This document shows, piece by piece, positions 7,032-58,600 of a stretch of 64,000 nucleotides of DNA. The notes under the pieces are model-generated. The model made no database searches. It worked only from the letters and a program-made list of their open reading frames with translations, and had not been told where the DNA came from. A program made the position numbers and the translations under genes. The number at the start of each line of letters is the position of its first letter. Within the stretch, counting starts at the first letter, position 1. This DNA is from Ascidiella aspersa (lineage: Eukaryota): positions 2,728,001-2,792,000 of the forward strand of contig OZ004607.1 in the NCBI GenBank assembly GCA_963924565.1. Direction: 5' to 3'.

Positions 7032-9137
7032 TACATTTAAGAACAAAGGCGCAAAATTAATAATGAATATTAGAATTTACAGTCGGCGTAATTAGCAACC
7101 GGTGATAATTTTGTAGTGCTAATTAAGCACGTAACATCGAACCCGAACCTTTCAATAGCAACTAAGCTTTCCAAACTCGCTCAAAATGCTTGGTTTATAA
7201 TGAAATTATAAAAAAACAACGCAACAACACCATTAGATTGATAACGAATATCGCGACGAAACTAACAGCGGCCTCTTGACCAAAAGTTTGGAACTTGTAG
7301 GTTATTCGAATGCGCCAGTCCGATGCTATTTAGAAATATATTTTCACGTTTCGATACGAAGTTGTGGCGCGGGGGACGGTGCAATTGATTTCATTCTGAG
7401 TTGCTATTATTGGGACCAATATTTAGCACCTTCAGGTGTAACTAATTTAATGGTTTTCCACAACAATGTAAACAATAATAATAAACAAAGCATGTGTATA
7501 GGGCTGATGACTGCTATACGTTTGCAATAAGATGTGGAAAATAGATTTTAAGCAGACATACATTGATTTAACCTTGTCTCGCGTAAGTACAAGCAATGAT
7601 AAACTAGAACTGCAACTATAAGTTGGCTCGCCACGCACTGAGGCCATATCACCAAATCTCGTCTACTATTATTGCGTCATATTATCGCCTAAACATGTTT
7701 TTCACTATAGTTTATACCTTTTTATAACAGGTATACACTCCCTGGATTAAAACTGGGTTTAATAACATTTGCTTCATACTTCCTCGCGTTCATATACAGT
7801 AGCTCGTTTTTTAAACAGCTAGAAGAAACGCTGCGGAAGTTATTGACATCCCATCAGTCGGTTCGCTTTTTGACCGGCATAAATACTGTAAGTTTAAGCA
7901 TACTGTAATCTGAAGCATCAACAAAAATCTATGGATGGCCAAATTACTATTCTTAACCTAGAAGTTACAGCTTGCTGAATAAGCTACTAGGCGTTATGTA
8001 GTCATTTATACTAAAATGCTTTAACCTCTTACAGGGAATGATGGTGTATCCTTTTTGGCAATTGTGTTCATAAGGCCTAGTACTGTAGATGTGGTTTGTT
8101 AATATGTAGCTGCCACATAAATAATAACATTATATTATAACTATATGTAACCACATCTGCAGTTTCCAAGCAAACGTATAAATATATATGGCTGTCATCG
8201 ATTAACTAATAAATCATAATTTTAAGAAGCAATGTTGAACGCTTTTACCGCGATAAGCTAAACTAATTGTCACTGCCTGCTTTACAGAAATGCAACTATA
8301 AACATCGCACAGCTTTTTTAACTTCCGTTTTCGCAAGACTGAAACGCATTGCTCATTTAATGCAACGCATGACTAGTTATAAGTTAGGCATGGATAGTAA
8401 AATATAGGCTAAGCGTATAGTTTATTTTTGGTATGCGAATAAATCAAACAAACTTTATAAGTATTCATAGTTGGTTCATGTGGCAGTTTTTTAAGACTTG
8501 TATTTTTTCTCATAGGTTTCTGCTCGATATTAATGAATGGATTTAACAAAATACAACATTGCTATGTTTAACCGGTACATTATAAGAACTGATTGCGTAT
8601 CAGTATATAGCATTTAGCGATTAGTAGACGTATTTACGGGTAAGGCCGCTAAAATGACTGTTCGAAACTTATGGTGCTCTAGATAGAGTCACTTCACTCA
8701 GTTGATATTGATCGGTGAGTATATATTCATAAATCTCAGAACACACGATAAAAGAACGCAGTTATTCAAGCCGCTATTCTACAAGCTTCAAAAAGTGCAA
8801 TGCATCGAAAAACGCCGATAATGCACGGTTTTGGTCACGCGTCAGTAGACAACAGTCACGTGCATTGTGACGTCAAATGTAGCAATGCAGGCTAATAATG
8901 TTGAATAAAGGCTTCAAACAAAACATTAGAAATCAAAATAACAGATATGCATACAGTTACACAATACAAACCCTGTCTATTGATAAAATTGAACAAGACT
9001 TTAACCGAGAATAAATATGCTGTTGCTACCAGGCATAGTATATTTAAAATTGGTTCCTCTGGCATATATTTCTTTAACCAGCGTTTCGGCTTATTATAAG
9101 CGAGAATTATGACAAACTAAGAACGTATAGGCTACGT

Positions 9138-46785: not shown

Positions 46786-49667
46786 ATGAAGACCGTTTTA
46801 ATGGTTGCGGAGAAACCATCTCTGTCGCTATCAATTGCCAAAATCTTATCCCGCGGTAGTTTAAACACAAGAAAAGGTATCAGCAGTGCTTGTCCAATTC
46901 ATGAATACTCTGGTAAGTTTATTTACTTTCTACAAGTAAGTTGGACTAAATAGTAAAGTAAAATAAAATTGCATATTGGTTGGAGGCTGTGGTAAGACTT
47001 ATATATAAGAATATCAAAGCCCATACAGAAGTAGGTAGCATTTTGACTGTTTTAAATAACTTTATTCATTTTCAAAATAGTCTTCAACATAAAAATAAAA
47101 ATGTTTACAGAACACCATTTTTTCTTTATATCCGTGTAAATTACTACATAATTTTTCCTAACAGAATGCCGCACTGTATAACTTTATTTGTTCAGGTAAA
47201 TTTCAAGGTGAACCAGTGAATTTTAAAGTCACTTCTGTTTGCGGACATGTGATGGCCCTGGATTTTGACGGAAAGTACAACAACTGGGACAAAGTTGACC
47301 CGGCCGAGTTGTTCAACGCTCCAACCTTCAAAAAGGAATCAAACCCAAAACTTAACATTGTCAAGTAAGTAACATTGAGAGCTTCAGTTGCTGGCACAGG
47401 CTGTTGATCCTGAGTATAGCGGGCAATGGTTCTATGGGCGTTTCTTGACTAGCTTCCAATAAGCCTATTTACGTCAGTTAGTAGAGCATCAGGATTGGTT
47501 TGGCTGGAGTTCGTCAGTTGAAACCTGACCTTAGACTAGTTATTTGTCTGATCTTGCTTGCACTGTAATCCTTAGACTGACTCATTTCGATAGCCTTTTT
47601 GGAGGCATCACATGAAATAAGCAACATTATCAATATATTATGCGTTGTGAAACTTTTAGGTTTTTTGATGTGGAGATGTTAAGTGGTTTCTATTGTATAA
47701 CTGTCATACTTTGGTAAAACAAGATTAAACCATATACAGAATTAACACTTTACAGTTAGCTGAACTAAAATATTTTGAATTTTAAACAATTCCTATTTTC
47801 AATAAGAATATTATTTCAAATTATACGTCTTACAGAAACTATTTTACCTTAATAATTAACATTTAATCCTAAAACAAATCAAGTGTTTTTCACCACAAGC
47901 TCATTATGGATCATTTGATGTGAATTGTGAAACACATTTTTTACATTTTGTTTTTTTGCCAGATTTCTTGAAAAGGAAGGCAGGGGAATTGATTACGTTG
48001 TTTTGTGGCTGGATTGTGACAAGGAGGGGGAAAATATCTGCTACGAAGTTCTCGACATAGTATTGCCTGTTATGAAACCGGTAGGTTCACATGCTTAACA
48101 GAATAAAAAGATTGCCAATTTTTTTGATATTTAAAATCTTTTTGTAAAATCACCAAAAAAACAGATTGTCTGATAAGAGTTAAATTTTTTATTGCTTAAC
48201 CCATACCAGAAAGAAAAGAGTAACCAATGTTATGTTTTACATTAAATATTGGTGTAAAATCATCAACAAAACAAATTGTCAGTTTAAAAGTAAAATTTGT
48301 AACGGTTATTATTTTTCCTTTGTCACTAAATTTGAGTAAGACATGATTCACTTTAGACATAAAATAACTAGCTGGTCTTTTTTTTTATTAAAAACAGTAA
48401 ATGTTTGACTGCTTTAGAAGTTGTACTTAGTTTATTTTAACACTTCATATATTTTTTAAAAACACACAAAAAAAAAACAGATAACAGTTGTATTTAATCT
48501 CCCCTTGTCAGTAAATTACATAATATAATATTTAACCAGCAGTTTTGCTCGTAAAACAACTTACTGGCTCTTTAATTGAAAGGTGTAAATGTTTTACAGT
48601 CCCCAAGGCAAACAGTGTTCCGTGCTCACTTTAGCGCGATCACCGACAAAGACATCCATGCTGCGATGAACAAGCTCGGTTCTCCGAATGAAAACGAATC
48701 TTTGGCGGTAGATGCTCGCCAGGAACTCGATTTAAGGGTCGGTTGTGCCTTCACGAGATTTCAAACTAAATATTTCCAGGTATGTGTTAGTTTTTAACGG
48801 ACTGATTTTAGGTTGTTTTGTGTACAGTTAGCCTATGTAGGCTTATACATGGGTCAAACCATGAACTCTGAAGCACAGTTATTGGTCACCAAAAGTGTTC
48901 AAAACCTACCTAAATTGCCACATATTTGCACAAGGCCAATAAACCCCTAAACAATATTTTTTATTTTTACCAAATGTAATTTTTTTTATTTAATGTTGCA
49001 CTCATGGCTATGGATTGTTTTTTTTTTCTTGTTTTTTTTTCCTACAGGCACTGGAAGAAATTTACCCTATGCTTCATGTTTGGTATCAATTATAATTGCA
49101 ACAGCGCAAAAGTTTATTTATGTAATTAATTAACCGTTTTGTACTGGTTTGGGAAAAAAACAACCTGGAATTTCTAATGTTTGGCTCCTATGTGCAAAAG
49201 AGGCTGATTATATGTTTAGATTTTATTCAGAATGTTAAGAGTGTGTGTAGACATTTCTACATATTTAATTTTTTTTTCAATTATTTTACTGTTTTACCGC
49301 AGGGAAAATATGGAAACCTTGACAGCTCGTTAATCTCCTATGGACCTTGCCAGACACCCACCTTAACGTTTTGTGTTGAGCGACATGACAAAATTCAATC
49401 TTTCAAACCTGAAACCTACTGGCAAATAGACGTCGATGTCAAGTGTCCAAATGATGGGCCGACGATTAAACTGGACTGGTCCCGGTATATAGTATTTTCT
49501 TTTTTGTATAAAGTATTATTATCAAAACCCTTTTTTTTAAATCATTTATTATTTTATTCAAAAATTGTAATAGTGAATATCCCATTTTGTTTCTGAAAAA
49601 TCAAAAAAGATTTTTTCTTTATTTGACTAAATAAATTGATTTACAATCAATGGAATAGATTAACTTT

Positions 49668-49698
<31 letters not shown>

Positions 49699-52600
49699 TT
49701 AAATATTTAAACCAAAATTTAAATTATTCTAAATTTGTCCTTGGTAATGAAATATTATTTGCTTTGAAAAATAATTGTCATGTGTATTAGATTGGATTTA
49801 ATTGATTAGAAAACAAAATAATTGACCTAAATATTCGCAGTATTCTGTATATAATCAGACCGCTGTGTAGATTTTCTATTAAATAACAAAAAATGTCAAA
49901 AGTGTTTAAATGATCTAATACTTCTTTGATAAAATATTTGTGATAAAAAATGTTGTTTTTTCTTCTGTTTTTTCTAAACAATCGCCATACGTTTGAATAC
50001 GCTTAGCTGAATAGAAAGCAAAACAATTAAAATTTTCGCAGAGTTCGCGTGTTTGATCAAACGGTCGCCAATATGTTCCTTGGATTCGTGAAAGACCAAA
50101 AGTCAGCGATCGTCCAATCGGTTAAAGCTGATGAGAAGAAGAAACAAAGGCCACTCGCCTTAAACACAATTGAAATGCTGAGAATCGCAAGTTCAGCTCT
50201 CGGTATTGGACCACAGCAAACTATGCAGGTGATCACCACGCTTTAAAAGGGAAATTTTGTGTTCCTATATCCTGTTTTTCTAAAATCCAGTCAATCCTTT
50301 AAAATTTAACAGAAAGTTTAAGTCGTCTGCGCATGATTAACCAGGGCAGTGGTTCATTCATTACATTTATGCAAAGTACTTAAGTATATTGCATATTATA
50401 TTAAAACAAAAAGGATTCTTTTAAACCAGATGAACCACCTTGCTGTTAGAAACAGACATAATTTCTCCTAGAAAAACTACATTTCTCTTAGAATTTGTTA
50501 TGTTAAAATTTTTGATGCATAAATTTATAGCCTATATTATGATAATAAAAAAATATATAAATTAAAAAAATCTGTTTTAAATTAAACATGTTTTAAAATT
50601 TATAAAAAAATTTTCATTGAAAAACACTGTTTTAAATTTTTTTATAAAAAACATGAAAAAAACTAATATTAAAAAATAATATTATATTAAATCAAAATAC
50701 ATTTTTATCAGAAGAATACTATTTAAACTCTGACAAAAATAGAAATTATCACCTTTCATCTAACCAAGTCCTTCAAAATTGTCCTAACCCCCCTTAGATA
50801 GCCGAGCACCTCTACATCCAAGGTTACATCAGTTACCCTCGAACCGAGACCACAAGTTACCCGGACAACTTTGATTTCCGTGGACCCCTGGGGCAGCAAT
50901 CAAGCAACCCCATCTGGGGTCAGTACGCCAAGTCCCTGCTTCAAGGGGGTGATCTGAAAGCAAGGAAGGGTCATGACGCGGGTGATCACCCTCCTATTAC
51001 CCCAATGAGAAGCGCATCTGAGCATGAAATCGGTAACTAAGTATTTAAGAACCCGGAATAAATTACTTTATACCAGACATCCCTGAAATGTATATTTACC
51101 TGCGGAATATTTTTCTATCTATGTTACTCTTTTAAGGAGAACCTCTGAACATGAAATCGGTAATTCTAGAGTATAATTATGTATTGGAAAGTCGGAATAG
51201 ATTGCCATGTATTAGATTTAGAACATGAGATGGCAACTAAACGGCAACTTAATATGTCTTAAGTATTGGGGAAATAAATTGCAACGTATAAGACAGCCCT
51301 TAAATGTATATATATATATATATATATAAGATTTTCCATCTATGTTACTCCAGTAAGGAGCACATCTGAACACGAAATCTGTATTTAGATGTGTGTATGT
51401 GTAAGCTTGCAAATCAATTTACGAGAGTTAGTAAAGCGACGGTCCCGGTATGGCCGAGGTCGTGAGTTCGAACCCCACTGCAGGCCAGTTGTACCAACAG
51501 GGTGCAGCAGGCAACGGTGCTATGATTGTTTCTCGACTAACTACCCTTTAAGCCTGTGTAGCTTAGTTGGTAAAGCAACGCTCCCGGTATGACCGAGGTT
51601 GTGCGTTCGAATCCCACTGCAGGCCAGTTGTACCAACAGGATGCAGCAGGCAACAGTGCTATGATTGTTTCTCGGCTTGCTCCCTTCTGAGCCTGCGTAT
51701 AGCTCAGTTGGTAGAGCGACGGTCCCGGTATGACCGAGGTTGTGCGTTCTAATCTCACCGCTGTTGTTCTTTTAGCCTCGCTTTGCTGGCAATATAATTC
51801 TGGATAAGCCTCCCTATTTCAGTAAGCCTTTCCGAAGGAAAGGTGGTTGTTTAGATTTTAACATTTTTTTAAGTTCAGCTTTCCTAAGTGTTTTTGTAAT
51901 TAATCGTCATATGTTCATTTTGACCTGCTTTTATACTACCTTTTTCCTACTTTGGCCTGTTGAAGCACGGTTGTGCGAAAGCTTGTCGAGAATTTAATAC
52001 AATTTGTCTTTACATAATGCCACCTGATTACCCTAATTAGAATTCGACAAATACGGCCATTTCCGAAGATTGGTGAATAAAAAACTTAATCCTAAGTTTT
52101 ATTTTTCTGTGCAGGTCACGACCATTGGCGACTGTACGATTACATAGCCCGTCATTTCATGGCCACCTTAAGTCCCGACTGCACTTACCTACACACCGAG
52201 ATACAATTCAAAGTCGGTGCCGAGATGTTCACTTGTACAGGCAACGCCCCGCTCAAACCAGGTTTCACTGAGGTAATTATTTGTGTGTCAAGCACGCCTT
52301 CTATGCAGGGATATCCGATGTCATGTTATAGTATAGGTACTTTTCCGATACCAAATTAATTTAGGAATTTCAGACCTGGGTACACTATGCACGGATCTGT
52401 AATGTAGCTTGATAATGAATTGCAAAGTCAAAGAGGTCGAGTAGATCGACATCATCTTGATAAAGACGTTTCGATACGAGCTTGTATCATCATCAGTTAA
52501 TGTGACTGAGAAGTAGTTCATGCATCACATGACACAAGTTCGTATCGAATTGTTTTTTTTCATTATCAAATTTCAGACATAATTTGCGAATACACGCAGC

Positions 52601-55600
52601 GAATTAATGTCAAAAAGTAAATTTGTCAAAAAAGTAGTGGAGGTAGCTAACTGTGGATAACTAGTAATTCACGATTAGGCCCTGGTGGAAACTTTGGGCG
52701 CTCCCCTTAAACCATGATAAATCATCATGCTAAATAAAATACGGGTTGTCTGTTATGATTTTGGCAAAAAAAATCACCAATGTTCGTTTCTCGCCATAGA
52801 TTATGCACTGGCAATCGATAGGAGAAGGTCAGACAGTTCCCAAGCTGAAGAAGGGGGATTCGTGTTCCGTGGAGAAGGTGATGTTGTCGGAGCGGAAGAC
52901 AGGACCTCCGGACTTTCTCACAGAGAGCGAGCTCATCTCGCTCATGGAGAAGCACGGCATTGGAACGGATGCCAGCATCTCGACGCACATCAACAACATT
53001 GTGCAGAGGAACTACGTGGCAGTTATGGCTGGCAGAAAGCTACAGCCTACTACTCTGGGTAAGATGGAAAAAAGGGGGTTGGTTGATTTCGTAGTTTTGA
53101 AGTGTAATAATTTATATTTTAACTAGGCTCTAAATCAGTGTTTCTCGATCTATGTAAACAACAATAATGCTTAAAGTTTAAAAACCCGTGTAAAACGAGG
53201 ATCAGACATTTTTTAAAGGAATATATATTTCGCCTATACTCGCATCGTCAGTTCCGTAATTCTTACTTTTTAATGAAGTAATGATGTCAATATAAATATA
53301 TATTTCTTTAAAAAAATTCTGATCCTGGTTTTACTCGGGTTTTTAAACTTTTAGTTCCATTGTTAATATACGCGTCAGCGGAACAGTGACCGACAAGCAG
53401 AAACCTGCTGCCAATGGTTTGGGGTTCCATAAAGATCCGCATATATTTAATGTATATATCAATCTATGGGGAATATGTGTCGCCGTTGAATTTCGTTTCC
53501 GCAATTACTTATTTATTTTAGTAAGAGAAAACACACTTCGACTTCCGAAACACAGAAAAAAGCAGCTGAAAAAAGAGAAACACTGCGCTAACCTAAAGGT
53601 TGAGCCTCGTTGACGCCGTTCATGACGTTCGGAAAATGGTCAGAATTTTACGAATGTTTTAACGTTGTTTATTTGTGATGAAGGCATTGTGTTGGTCCAC
53701 GGATACAAGATGATAGATCCCGACCTCGCTTTACCAACGATGAGGTCCGCTGTTGAAAAGCAACTCAACCTAATTTCACTTGGTAAGTAGTTTTGCTAAC
53801 TTGTTGTTCAGTTACAACCCAAATATGCATCCGTGGTTCGCTTTATTTAAAGCTGTGCATCACGTTTTGTTATATTCTCGTAGGTTTTTATGTAAATACT
53901 TCCCAGTGTACACTTTTAAGTTATTACGCGTTGTTCCTGTAAACCATTTGTTACTCGTTGTAAATGGTGCCACGACAAAAAGTGTTCTTTAGGCGTAATA
54001 ATGCCACCTGATTGTCGGTAAATCAATATCAAAATAAAATCCGTGGCAGCCCAGGGGTTCTGAGGTTGAAGAAACCCATTCATAAAAACTGTTTTTTGCC
54101 CATGTGCAAATACAAAACTGAAATAGAGTCTAAATATAATTAAGGAGAATGCGCCAGATCGTTTTTCAGTTACGCTGTTTGATTTTGAAATCCGTTCCTT
54201 TTTTTAAACTAAAAAAAGTATTTGGATTGAAATCGAATTTCGCATTTTTTCGACCAAAACAGCAGGTTTCTAAAGCATACTTGTTTTGTGACGTTAACTA
54301 ATAGCGTCAGCTAAAAATTATACCCATGTAGATCCCATGGCGTATTTTACAGATACGCCCTTTTATATTATACATATAAATCTATATGTGAAATGTGGGT
54401 CGCGTTGCATTTTGTTCGGCACATTTTCGCATGTTTATTACTTATTTACTTTACCTACAGAAGAACACATTTTAACTTAAATACCGAAAAAAACTGCTGT
54501 GTGCGGTAAAAATGGCGTTTCCAGTCCGCTTTTTTTATTGAAATTATGTTCTAAGAAGTGGCCTGGCTTTAGTTTAGAGCTTAATTTACGGTGTTTCTGC
54601 CAATTAGTGGTGTCGGATTTTTAGGAATGGTGTATTTGCTGCTTAAAAGCGATATTTTTGCGGACTCCAGCCATAAGACCGAGATAAGAACAACACCATC
54701 TTCAGAATAAAACACAATTCGGAATAAGGCCAAAATAGGACTATACCTAATGGTATTAGTACCGTCTAAATCAGAATAAATCCAATTTAGGCCTTATTTC
54801 GACAAATTTTGGGTTTTATTCAGACGATTTTGAACTTATTCTGTACTGGATATTACTGCGTATTTAGCTGTATTATGTCGTTGGTCTTAATGCTATGGTT
54901 TTATTGATTTTCTACTTTGGGTATTGCTGCTTTTTGGGTCCAATTGTGTGTTCCTATTTTTTGCAGGCAAAGCCCAACATCGCGATGTATTACGTCACGC
55001 AACCGCCATCTTCCAGCAAAAGTTCAACTACTTTGTGGCGAAGGTTCTCTCCATGGACAAACTATTCGAGGTTTCGTTCACTCCGTTGTCAGAAAGTGGA
55101 AAGTCGATGTGCCGGTTCGTTACTTAAGCTTGGATTACAAAGAAATGTTTTTGTATTATGTAAAGTGGGTTGCCGAGCTTCGTTATATACCAAATGTTGG
55201 CACTTTTTAAGGAACCCTTTTGCTCCCTGGTTGGAGTATCCCGTAAAGAAGGTAAATCCTTAGGTACTCTATGCACGGTTCTGAAGCTTGAAAATACTTG
55301 CCATCATCAGTTAATGTAAATATTACACTTCGGTGCACTATGCACGGATATGTAATATAGGTTGAAAATATATGCCAAAGCCAAATAGGTCGAGTAGATC
55401 GACATTATCTTGATAAAGACACTTCGATATACGAACTTGTATCATCATCAGTTAATGTAAATGTTATACCGTAGTCCGTAATGGATGCAAATATATTTAA
55501 GTGCACTATGCACGGATCTGTAATGTAACTTAATAGTTTAAAGCCTAATTGGTCAAGTAAATCGACATCATCTTAAAAAAGACGTTTCGATACGAACCAT

Positions 55601-58600
55601 TATCAGTAAATCTGTCTGAAATATACCCAAACATCACTTCTAAAAGGTAGAATGTCATTCTTATCAGGTTTATATATATTTCTGTCAAGAAATTGAAACT
55701 ACGCACAGTTTGGGAAAACGCACTAAATGCGATCCAATCTGAACTGGGTCAGAGCATCGTGCCAAGTTTACCTTGCGCCTATATTTCTTAGTTCTGCAGA
55801 TGTTACAAATATGATATTATTAAGACATTTACATGTAGTTTGTTGTGTGTAAAGGGCGATTGTAAACTTACTGTATTGTTATTCTGTTAAAAGAAGGCCG
55901 CGAAATATTGAAGATTTTTGTAGTGTGTCTCTAGCAAAAAAGTGTGAGAACCACTTCCCCACTCTCAAATCGAGTCTGAGCATCGTGCGAAGTTACCCTG
56001 CAGTTTATTTCGTCTTTAATGCCTGAAGTTTCGCAAATACCCACTCTTGTTGCGTTCAGATGCGGACACGCATTTTATACTTAAAAACTACCTGTTGCAA
56101 AACTGATAATATGACGACGTTTGCATGTAGGTTTTCGTGTGGTAAACGCAATTGTAAAGTTTCTACATTGTTGTTGTGTTAAAACTTGGCTTCGAAATCT
56201 CAAAGATTTTTTTAGTGTGACCCTAACTTTTGAGAACCACTTCCCCACCCTCGTTTAAATGTGGGAATTGCAAACGCTTTAGGAACCTCTGCACTAATGT
56301 AATCGAATCTGAGCTTGGCCAGCATCGTGCGAAGTTTACCTTGAGGATTACCTTGGTCTTTACTTCTTAAAGTTTTACATAAACCCGCTTTCCTATGTTC
56401 AGTTGCGGCAAGTGCAGACGCTTTATGAAGTTCATAGCAACCGCCCCACCTCGCTTACACTGCAGTACTTGCGATGAAACATATGACCTTCCGGCCAAGA
56501 CCAACATCAAGTTGTACAAGGAACTCAAATGCCCGCTGGACGACTTCGAGCTCGTGCTTTGCTCAACAGGTGTGACTGTTTTACATTTGAATTACTTTTA
56601 AAAAAGCGAACCTCTGTTTTAATGTTAGTGTATATTGGGTTTTAAAAGTGCTCAAGTGTAGCGGGTTTATTTTTTGGCACATGCGAATAAATTAAAACAG
56701 AAAGTTCGGGCATACTAAAATAACGGTTTGTACAAAACAATTTATTTACAGTTGCGACAGGTTAATTACACGAAATCTTGCTAAATGCTTTGGTGTAAAC
56801 CACACCAATTACAATGCGTTATATTTGAAAGAAAAAATTATACCAATGTGTTGTTTTTCAACTTTTTGCAAATAATCTTTGTAAACCATGTATTGAGGGA
56901 TAGGTAAGATAATTTAATATTGTTTCCAAAAAGAAAATTGGACATACATATATTAACTGATCTTAAAAACTACTTAATATTTAAAAAAAAAAAAATTTGA
57001 AAAAAAAATAATCTCGCATTTCTTGGAATACCAACAGGCTCCCAGGGCAAGAACTACCCGCTATGTCCTTACTGCTACAACCACCCTCCATTCAAGGACA
57101 TGCGACGAGGTGCCGGCTGCAATTCGTGCACACACCCAGGTTGCATGCACTCACGCACCAACTTGGGGGTTTCCCCCTGCCCTAGCTGTGAGAACGGGGT
57201 GCTTGTTCTCGATATGACGTCATCACCCAAGTGGAAGCTCGCCTGCAACGATAATCGATGCTCTACGGTGGTGCAGCTCTTTCAAAACGCACACAGGGTT
57301 GGTTGGTTTTGGTCTTTGGACTTGTTTGTATGGATAAGGAGCATAATGGCTGGATGTTGTGGTTAGGTGTAGAATGAATATCAAAGCCCATACAGATTTA
57401 GGTAAAGCATTTTAACGTTTCGAATAAATCTTAAGATAATTGTTGGAGGTTTTAGTTAGAGGGTTAGACATAAAATATCAAAACCCATACAGAATTAGGT
57501 GGAATTTTGGTAACGGTTTAAATAAATCTTGCGCAATTTGTTGGTTTTGGTTTTTGGACTTGTTTGTAGACACATATGGAGAATAACGGCTGCAACTTAT
57601 AGTTAGACCTTCAATAAATATCGGGACTTTGATTTATTCTACTATATAGATTGCGATTTGAACTAAATTGATGTGAAATAACAAAATTCAAACCCAATTT
57701 GAAAACATTGAAAAGCTTTATTTTAATTCTAATATAATTTGGAACTACTAAGCTAAAACTGATCTAATTTTACTTCTGCATAAATTTGAAAAATCTTTAG
57801 CTAAATCCAGTTGTTGTCGTGCAACCAACACTAACCCTTCTGTGTTGTTTTTAGATCGCTGTTACAGACGCTACTTGCGACAAATGCTCGGCTTACCAAC
57901 TCTCGGTCGAATTCCACAAAGACAAAACCCCGCTGGAAAATAACGAAACGAAACACACCGGTGAGACGTTATTTGTGTTTCCTGTGCAACTAAATAATGT
58001 TTTTAAAGTTATATTACATCGCAATAGTGTTAAGAAATGTTGAAACGAACTGTTGCCTTTTTTCGAACAGTAAACATCTAGAATTAAAATAAATTACATC
58101 TAGAAACATCCAGATTTTTTACAGAACAATCTAGATAGTGTTTTTGAAAGATAATTATTAAATTTGTACAAGATATACACATTATAAAGTTTAATGTCGT
58201 ATAAAGTTGCATTGAGCATTGTTTGATGCCTTAGATTTAAGACTTCTGTTTCATAAAAAAATTACTAAACATGACTAGTTAATACATTTTTTTTATATTT
58301 GAGAAAATTTAAACTGAACAAATTAATATAAAAATTTTCTGAATCGGTCACCAATCTAAAAAACTTTTCATGATTTAGAATTCTATACTAAATAATCCTA
58401 CATCTAGATCTAGATTGAAATAAATGGCAACCATACTTTAAAGAGCTTGCATTATGTTTTTACCAACTTGAAATTTTGTTTTTGTCTATATAATTTGTTT
58501 TATAATTTTGTTTCTAATAGCACACAGCATCGTGGTGAAAGGTGTGCTATGTAGTTTTCCCGGTTATCGCATCTAAAGAAGTCCAGTAGGTTGAAGTCTG

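Follow-up and report, generated by a model that had tools for sequence, protein, structure and literature searches.

The window, which is the whole 64-kb stretch of DNA that was analysed, carries TOP3B on its plus strand. The downstream one of the two exons listed in Table 1 matched residues 456-541 of human TOP3B (E 4.8e-28), and the upstream one, found as an open translation, presumably resembles human TOP3B as well. The intron between them (52273-52799) has GT..AG ends and contains an insertion of 193 bp (52376-52568), with a copy of the target-site duplication (TSD) on either side. A hammerhead motif lies in this insertion on the minus strand. The original prediction had placed a hammerhead antisense in a TOP3B intron and had reasoned that TOP3B pre-mRNA would for that reason not be cut; both statements agree with the strands of the exons and of the motif.

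Table 1. Positions in the window of the hammerhead, the insertion and the neighbouring exons
Feature	Positions	Strand	Basis or remark
TOP3B exon upstream of host intron	52115-52272	+	open translation
TOP3B exon downstream of host intron	52800-53059	+	match to human TOP3B
Target-site duplication, left copy, 10 bp	52366-52375		identical to right copy
Target-site duplication, right copy, 10 bp	52569-52578		identical to left copy
5'-truncated pLTR end of Penelope-like element, 152 bp, with tail	52377-52528	-	sequence comparison
Inverted, internally deleted second copy, 40 bp	52529-52568	+	head to head with the 152-bp piece
Likely first 26 codons of element ORF (ATG at 52455)	52377-52455	-	likeness to sister ORF
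Minimal type I hammerhead	52465-52496	-	direct reading and core pattern scan
Hammerhead core	52496-52490	-
Extra U	52489	-
Stem II and loop	52488-52473	-
GAAA	52472-52469	-
Palindromic stem III half	52469-52466	-
C17	52465	-
Stem I arms	52501-52497 and 52464-52460	-	U.U mismatch at 52462 (A in most copies)
Initiator-like site with the likely start of family transcription at 52503	52499-52505	-	junction counts and motif

On the minus strand, the core is followed by a single additional U, then by stem II (5 bp, closed by a loop of 6 nt), GAAA and CGUC, in the order that had been predicted. All 13 core positions are intact, and cleavage is predicted between C17 and position 52464. The core pattern matched the 64-kb window only at this place, with 0.02 matches expected by chance in the window, and it matched 2 of 100 shuffled controls. 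Stem II paired with a probability of 0.93 in a 50-nt fold. When positions 48000-57000 were compared with Rfam at E<=1, no hammerhead family was matched. The stem I arms, which the original prediction called weak, form two base pairs, a U.U mismatch and two further base pairs, whereas most copies of the family possess a perfect 5-bp stem I. The change at 52462 is common to 8 of 76 segments, often together with a U at the free position 7, and the mismatch is therefore a subfamily trait.

Several other repeats were observed in this region. A second minimal hammerhead, which belongs to another repeat family (repeat about 51940-52070), lies at 51957-51984 in the preceding TOP3B intron, on the plus (sense) strand. 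Both its stem II and its 4-nt palindrome differ from those of the family described below. The genome contains 390 exact copies of this second motif, and none of the 12 copies that were read showed a GIY-YIG motif upstream. The A at core position A6 (51960), present in 977 of 1016 plus-strand DNA reads, is replaced by T in the copy in the window; because of this replacement the copy is likely dead. Three tRNA-like units at 51417-51762 (+), spaced by 139-141 bp in a TOP3B intron, are likely a tRNA-derived tandem repeat or SINE, and one of them was called as tRNA-Thr(GGT) (51552-51625). An inverted repeat at 53160-53364 (71-bp arms, 86% complementary, 63 nt between them) is possibly a MITE.

The insertion and its parent element

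We searched the genome (308.6 Mb) with positions 52340-52700 as a query. Copies covered only about 52377-52528 and were up to 95% identical among the 40 scored of 3714 first-look candidates. The 32-nt core with stem II had 463 exact matches and the 3' 25-mer had 517, while the reversed-pattern control of each had 0. Further, in a DNA run the element was covered by reads to a depth of about 8100 and its unique flanks to about 10, which corresponds to roughly 800 copies at >=90% identity. To call the hammerhead hidden, as the original prediction did, thus overstated the case, since it is one of hundreds of copies.

Longer copies of the repeat contained the linked Penelope reverse transcriptase (RT) and GIY-YIG reading frames for which a search had been proposed, and the suggestion that the motif is a relic of a ribozyme-bearing mobile element of Penelope type was upheld. 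In the copy L017, whose end is 92% identical to the 152-bp piece of the insertion, RT (YVDD) and GIY-YIG share one frame with one stop, which ends about 100 nt before the ribozyme. Another copy, L032, matched Pfam RVT_1 (E 2.4e-9). The C-terminal 202 aa were 53% identical to the intact 848-aa ORF of a sister element (L073), which has a hammerhead at each end. A single ORF with RT followed by a C-terminal GIY-YIG, as in L017 (same frame, one stop), is a feature of EN+ Penelope-like elements (PLEs), and a position of the hammerhead in the pLTR of a PLE, as found here, is a feature of the minimal hammerheads (min-HHRs) of these elements.

Pfam did not recognise the GIY-YIG domain of the family to which the window copy belongs; it was assigned from the motif and from the identity that it shares with the sister ORF, and the Pfam match to GIY-YIG, which fell below the cut-off (E 8.6e-4), was obtained only on the ORF of a related family. 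By eye, L017 and L051/L072 showed the DKG motif and a CCHH motif in which two cysteines are placed between GIY and YIG, and the linker between RT and endonuclease in L017 lacks the CX2-5CxxC zinc finger that is a trait of Neptune and Nematis. Since the DKG motif and this zinc finger distinguish clades in the accessible part of PMC8557442, their presence and absence, respectively, point to the Penelope/Poseidon clade, an assignment made from motifs only. Among the five closest RT matches (75-100% identity) there was no intact full-length copy of the family; all five were broken or rearranged, and whole ORFs occurred only in more distant families.

Some of these more distant elements were observed in a complete state. 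The intact sister PLE is represented by L073 (G000:C3:20855000-20862500) and L074, with frames that are open over 848 and 880 aa. Direct pLTRs are present in L073, the hammerheads of which are of the C3-G8 type and have a U at position 17, and almost no RNA reads fell on the ORF body in one run. Another PLE, with ORFs that reach 816 aa, is arranged as a head-to-tail array with a period of about 2.67 kb (L075, G000:C9:23484000-23493900, and L076), the junctions of which each carry a U3-A8 hammerhead. The near-identity of its units suggests recent activity. A minus-strand frame at about 57340-57411 in the window resembles, by eye, the N-terminus of the family in L075 and is probably another pLTR stub in a TOP3B intron. 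Further, a 62-bp fragment at 7378-7439 (-) is 79% identical to that part of the element behind the TOP3B insertion which lies upstream of the ribozyme.

The 152-bp piece shows 10 differences from a typical copy. The inverted partial copy that had been noticed at ~52529-52549 proved to belong to the longer 40-bp inverted piece, the 3' end of which fits the tail-less end class described below. The first 26 residues of the element ORF are likely encoded in the final 79 nt of the window piece, to judge from a frame in which 12 of 44 positions agree with the N-terminus of the ORF in the intact sister (E 1e-4 in a single comparison). No spliced or empty-site joint was present among the joints listed in the sequencing-run reads.

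The anatomy of the insertion recurs throughout the family. In the first 70 of the 517 places of the 3' 25-mer, a sample chosen blind to the ribozyme and including 7 apparent duplicates, the median copy length was 112 nt, the forward piece reached the whole hammerhead in 27 copies and an inverted 5' piece was present in 48. A duplication candidate of >=8 bp was found in 39 of the 70, a count that has no chance control and in which some distant candidates are probably due to chance. The 3' end was fixed and the 5' ends varied. When 62 loci, with the 7 duplicates and the window copy dropped, were divided into 110 segments, two classes of 3' end were distinguished, namely 61 segments ending at positions 146-152, the class selected for, and 33 at 115-128. 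The main 3' end lies 88 nt beyond the cut site, and the DNA reads of the sister family have their ends piled up 88-90 nt and 59 nt beyond its cut sites. The family thus displays 5' truncation, an inverted 5' copy, an optional tail of 30-40 bp and variable TSDs, all of which are EN+ PLE features.

We hold it very probable that the motif is a minimal hammerhead in a Penelope-like terminal repeat, preserved in a truncated 193-bp insertion in a TOP3B intron, and that this copy is likely inert. The insertion may have arisen when both strands of an AT-rich site in the DNA were nicked by the element protein. Two starts of reverse transcription within the RNA, one 88 nt and the other about 55-60 nt beyond the cut site, would have given two cDNAs that joined head to head as the 152-bp piece and the inverted piece of 40 bp. 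The template RNA would not have cut itself, because the window copy spans the cut site. In the parent element, the two hammerheads of a tandem transcript would pair via the 4-nt palindrome and cut slowly, probably with the help of the protein of the element.

This scheme resembles that of Poseidon PAc of the green anole, as given in the accessible part of Frangieh et al. (2024; PMC11167929), in that a hammerhead overlaps the ORF start, targets are AT-rich, two internal RT starts yield the optional tail of 30-40 bp, the RNA template is uncut and no RNA reads end at the cut site. In contrast to the PAc ORF, which starts at stem II in that account, the frame at this place in the window family stops early, and the likely ATG is 10 nt past the cut; a further difference from PAc is that none of the five closest RT matches was an intact copy of the window family. 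Penelope of Adineta vaga, in the portion of Arkhipova et al. (2013; PMC3846280) available to us, likewise has an inverted pLTR at the 5' junction, TSDs of 8-10 bp, a tail (31 bp there), its first codons in the pLTR, and a TATA box followed by an initiator-like site.

We consider it very unlikely that the copy derives instead from a retrozyme, a kind of element that the original prediction had named beside the PLEs. Retrozymes are non-autonomous, short repeats of hammerheads in tandem, which spread through circular RNA without an ORF of their own. Type I hammerheads, short non-coding copies and a likely origin from PLEs are common to the family and to animal retrozymes (10.64898/2026.07.22.740005, a preprint that derives animal retrozymes from PLE pLTRs; PMC7229834). 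Most copies of the family are indeed short and non-coding, and a few loci, such as L025 and window positions 55240-55665, hold several partial copies in a row. However, retrozymes are tandem arrays of complete units, whereas no array of >=2 consecutive complete hammerhead units was found in the family loci that were read. The fixed 3' end, the uneven 5' ends with their gradual extension into GIY-YIG and RT sequence, and the frequent inverted partners argue against a retrozyme. The window copy itself is a solitary, TSD-flanked pLTR end, continuous with the RT/endonuclease ORF in longer copies.

State of the intronic copy

The copy in the window is likely inert, because it is antisense, lacks the TATA box, has a mismatch in stem I, is accompanied by an inverted piece that pairs with its core and has no intact dimer partner in the window. 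On the minus strand, the inverted piece paired with the core at -39.7 kcal/mol (z -5.0), and the probability of stem I was about 0. The energy of the hammerhead fold was +0.2 kcal/mol for the window copy compared with -3.7 for a typical copy. The same-strand copies at 55332-55458 and 55501-55665 have broken cores; they lie in the region 55240-55665 (-) of a later TOP3B intron, in which the main family is represented by two or three more copies, all degraded and partly in tandem. With no promoter, on the wrong strand for TOP3B, with its core masked and without an intact partner nearby, the window copy would not be cleaved. It may cut in trans, to judge from a core whose 13 positions are all intact.

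Such hammerhead variants are said, in the title of one paper further to those cited here, to cleave as dimers. The original prediction went as far as to state that they do so efficiently, for which the accessible parts of three papers gave no support. The single motif does not cleave and dimers and trimers cleave at a low level in PMC4209133; cleavage is very low even as dimers in PMC6765202; and it occurs only with the protein of the element in PMC11167929, in which insertion needs no cleavage.

One RNA run was read to about 6%, in which the depth of TOP3B exons was <=5. In this single shallow run, and so as weak evidence, no antisense reads were detected on the unique flanks (52278-52318 and 52565-52769). 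Reads over the element were from both strands, and they came mostly from other copies, because 95% of all reads continued into unlike sequence. No RNA read ends were listed at the cut site of either the window copy or the intact sister element, the ORF body of which had almost no reads. A search across sequencing runs, with rows of small share disregarded, listed no RNA run that carries the query.

That the insertion has been co-opted, with the ribozyme cutting an antisense RNA or a 96-nt hairpin in the pre-mRNA tuning the splicing or editing of TOP3B, appears less probable still than a retrozyme. The core is intact, the plus-strand hairpin is strong (-38.4 kcal/mol, z -5.5), and the right junction was present on two different contigs of run X2, so the insertion may be common in the species. 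On the other hand, 10 differences from a typical copy in 152 positions are not unusual in the family, the hairpin follows as a side effect from the inverted piece, which is present in 48 of 70 copies, and the flanks showed neither antisense reads nor a pile of read ends in the shallow run.

Conservation of the hammerhead fold

The motif closely matches the min-HHRs of PLEs that are described in the accessible part of Cervera and De la Pena (2014; PMC4209133), and the original statement that minimal hammerheads with a palindromic stem III mark PLE termini fits that account. Common to both are the type I core, a stem III that lacks a loop, the palindromic 15.2-16.2 segment, the extra base between 9 and 10.1, G10.1-C11.1 and a short stem I; further, both occur mostly as solitary truncated copies and in opposite-strand pairs, and both include a U3-A8 variant, which is found here in a sister family. 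Stem II is 5 bp in the window family compared with 7-8 bp in the Schistosoma families of that paper.

Within the family, 63 loci including the window copy yielded 110 segments. Changes affected 42 of 813 core positions (5.2%), 32 of 514 in stem II, 42 of 383 in the loop and 51 of 581 in stem I, compared with 428 of 4989 (8.6%) elsewhere. Common polymorphisms avoided the core and stem II, and two fell in stem I. The extra U at 52489 was present in 54 of 54 segments. No compensating pairs were seen in the 110 segments.

Across families, we aligned 10 hammerheads picked from the window and from RT-bearing loci to a structure drawn from the window sequence. Nine of the 11 pairs change on both sides in this set, in which three or four of the ten hammerheads are close kin. 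The covariation score was 0.76, compared with 0.23 for shuffled and <=0.19 for slid alignments, in what is a small and related set of 10. A G-C pair (the G10.1-C11.1 feature) was present in 9 of the 10 and G-U in one, the palindromic 15.1-16.1 segment was invariant in all 10, and one family had U3-A8 in place of C3-G8. Thus, the covariation of stem II, on which the original prediction had staked its refutation, was absent within the family but clear across related families. Because related families keep the fold with compensating changes, the comparison supports the view that the motif has been selected in the parent Penelope elements.

There is next to no probability that the motif is a chance match or decayed sequence that was never a working ribozyme: the lack of an Rfam match, the lack of compensation within the family with the small gap between 5.2% and 8.6%, and an active fold that is not the lowest-energy fold of the monomer are outweighed by the 0.02 matches expected by chance and by the occurrence of this core, in the same location, in several Penelope families of the genome, among which the stems differ yet remain complementary and C3-G8 is exchanged for U3-A8, and in the accessible part of PMC4209133 a monomer of the min-HHR class is not expected to fold actively.

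Junctions of the family and its likely transcription start

Longer copies of the family possess a TATA box (TATAA) 30 nt upstream of the initiator-like site, and the window copy begins just past this box and so lacks it. Segments beginning at positions 23-30 accounted for 25 of 110. Among copies that match from the equivalent of 52503 onward, the preceding base was the family C in 427 and a different base in 150. We read 90 of these 150 junctions, of which 85 were unique; 13 were like point changes and 72 were true breaks, and the 9 breaks explained by an inverted partner were removed. G occupied 25 of the remaining 63 junctions, compared with 18% in neighbouring bases (binomial p 5e-5, with the junctions taken as independent), and 13 of 34 plain-flank junctions, compared with 16%.

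Reverse transcriptases can copy the cap as a G. The excess of G at the junctions, together with the TATA box at -30, suggests that transcription of the family starts 7 nt before C3 and that the RT copies the cap; no such start was observed in RNA. Because the window copy starts 25 nt upstream of 52503, it would derive from read-through RNA.

Alternatively, the RT may have added an untemplated base with a bias towards G. Microhomology between the junction and the inverted partner is an improbable source of the G, as it explained 2 of 27 G junctions (exact run >=6 nt); some diverged inverted partners were classed as flank in this comparison, and the excess of G persisted in the plain-flank junctions. 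A splice junction behind an upstream AG was rejected as the origin of the 5' breaks near 52503, since such copies share no common upstream exon. A narrow literature search, which is no proof that the matter is unpublished, found no paper on a cap-derived untemplated G in PLEs.

The accessible part of PMC3846280 favours an antisense template for Penelope, whereas the hot spot of 5' breaks and the excess of G in the window family point to a sense, capped RNA as the template of at least some copies. The balance tips slightly towards the reading that the stubs are an end-to-end record of the element RNA, in which transcription starts 7 nt upstream of the core and the RT copies capped, sense, uncut RNA as far as the cap, so that an additional G stays at the 5' junction.

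Minimal hammerheads at the ends of Penelope elements have already been published, with thousands per genome, and the window copy, a real motif of this published kind in a dead stub, shows no sign of acting on TOP3B. The useful gain lies in the statistics of the junctions. If the stubs are such a record, the commonest of them (about 127 nt) would be a complete cDNA of the 5' end of the transcript rather than a random truncation, and the antisense-template proposal would be ruled against for these copies. If the junction G is a copy of the cap, sense uncut RNA would be a natural template, which bears on the role of the ribozymes. The promoters and transcription starts of PLEs would then be mappable from genome sequence alone.
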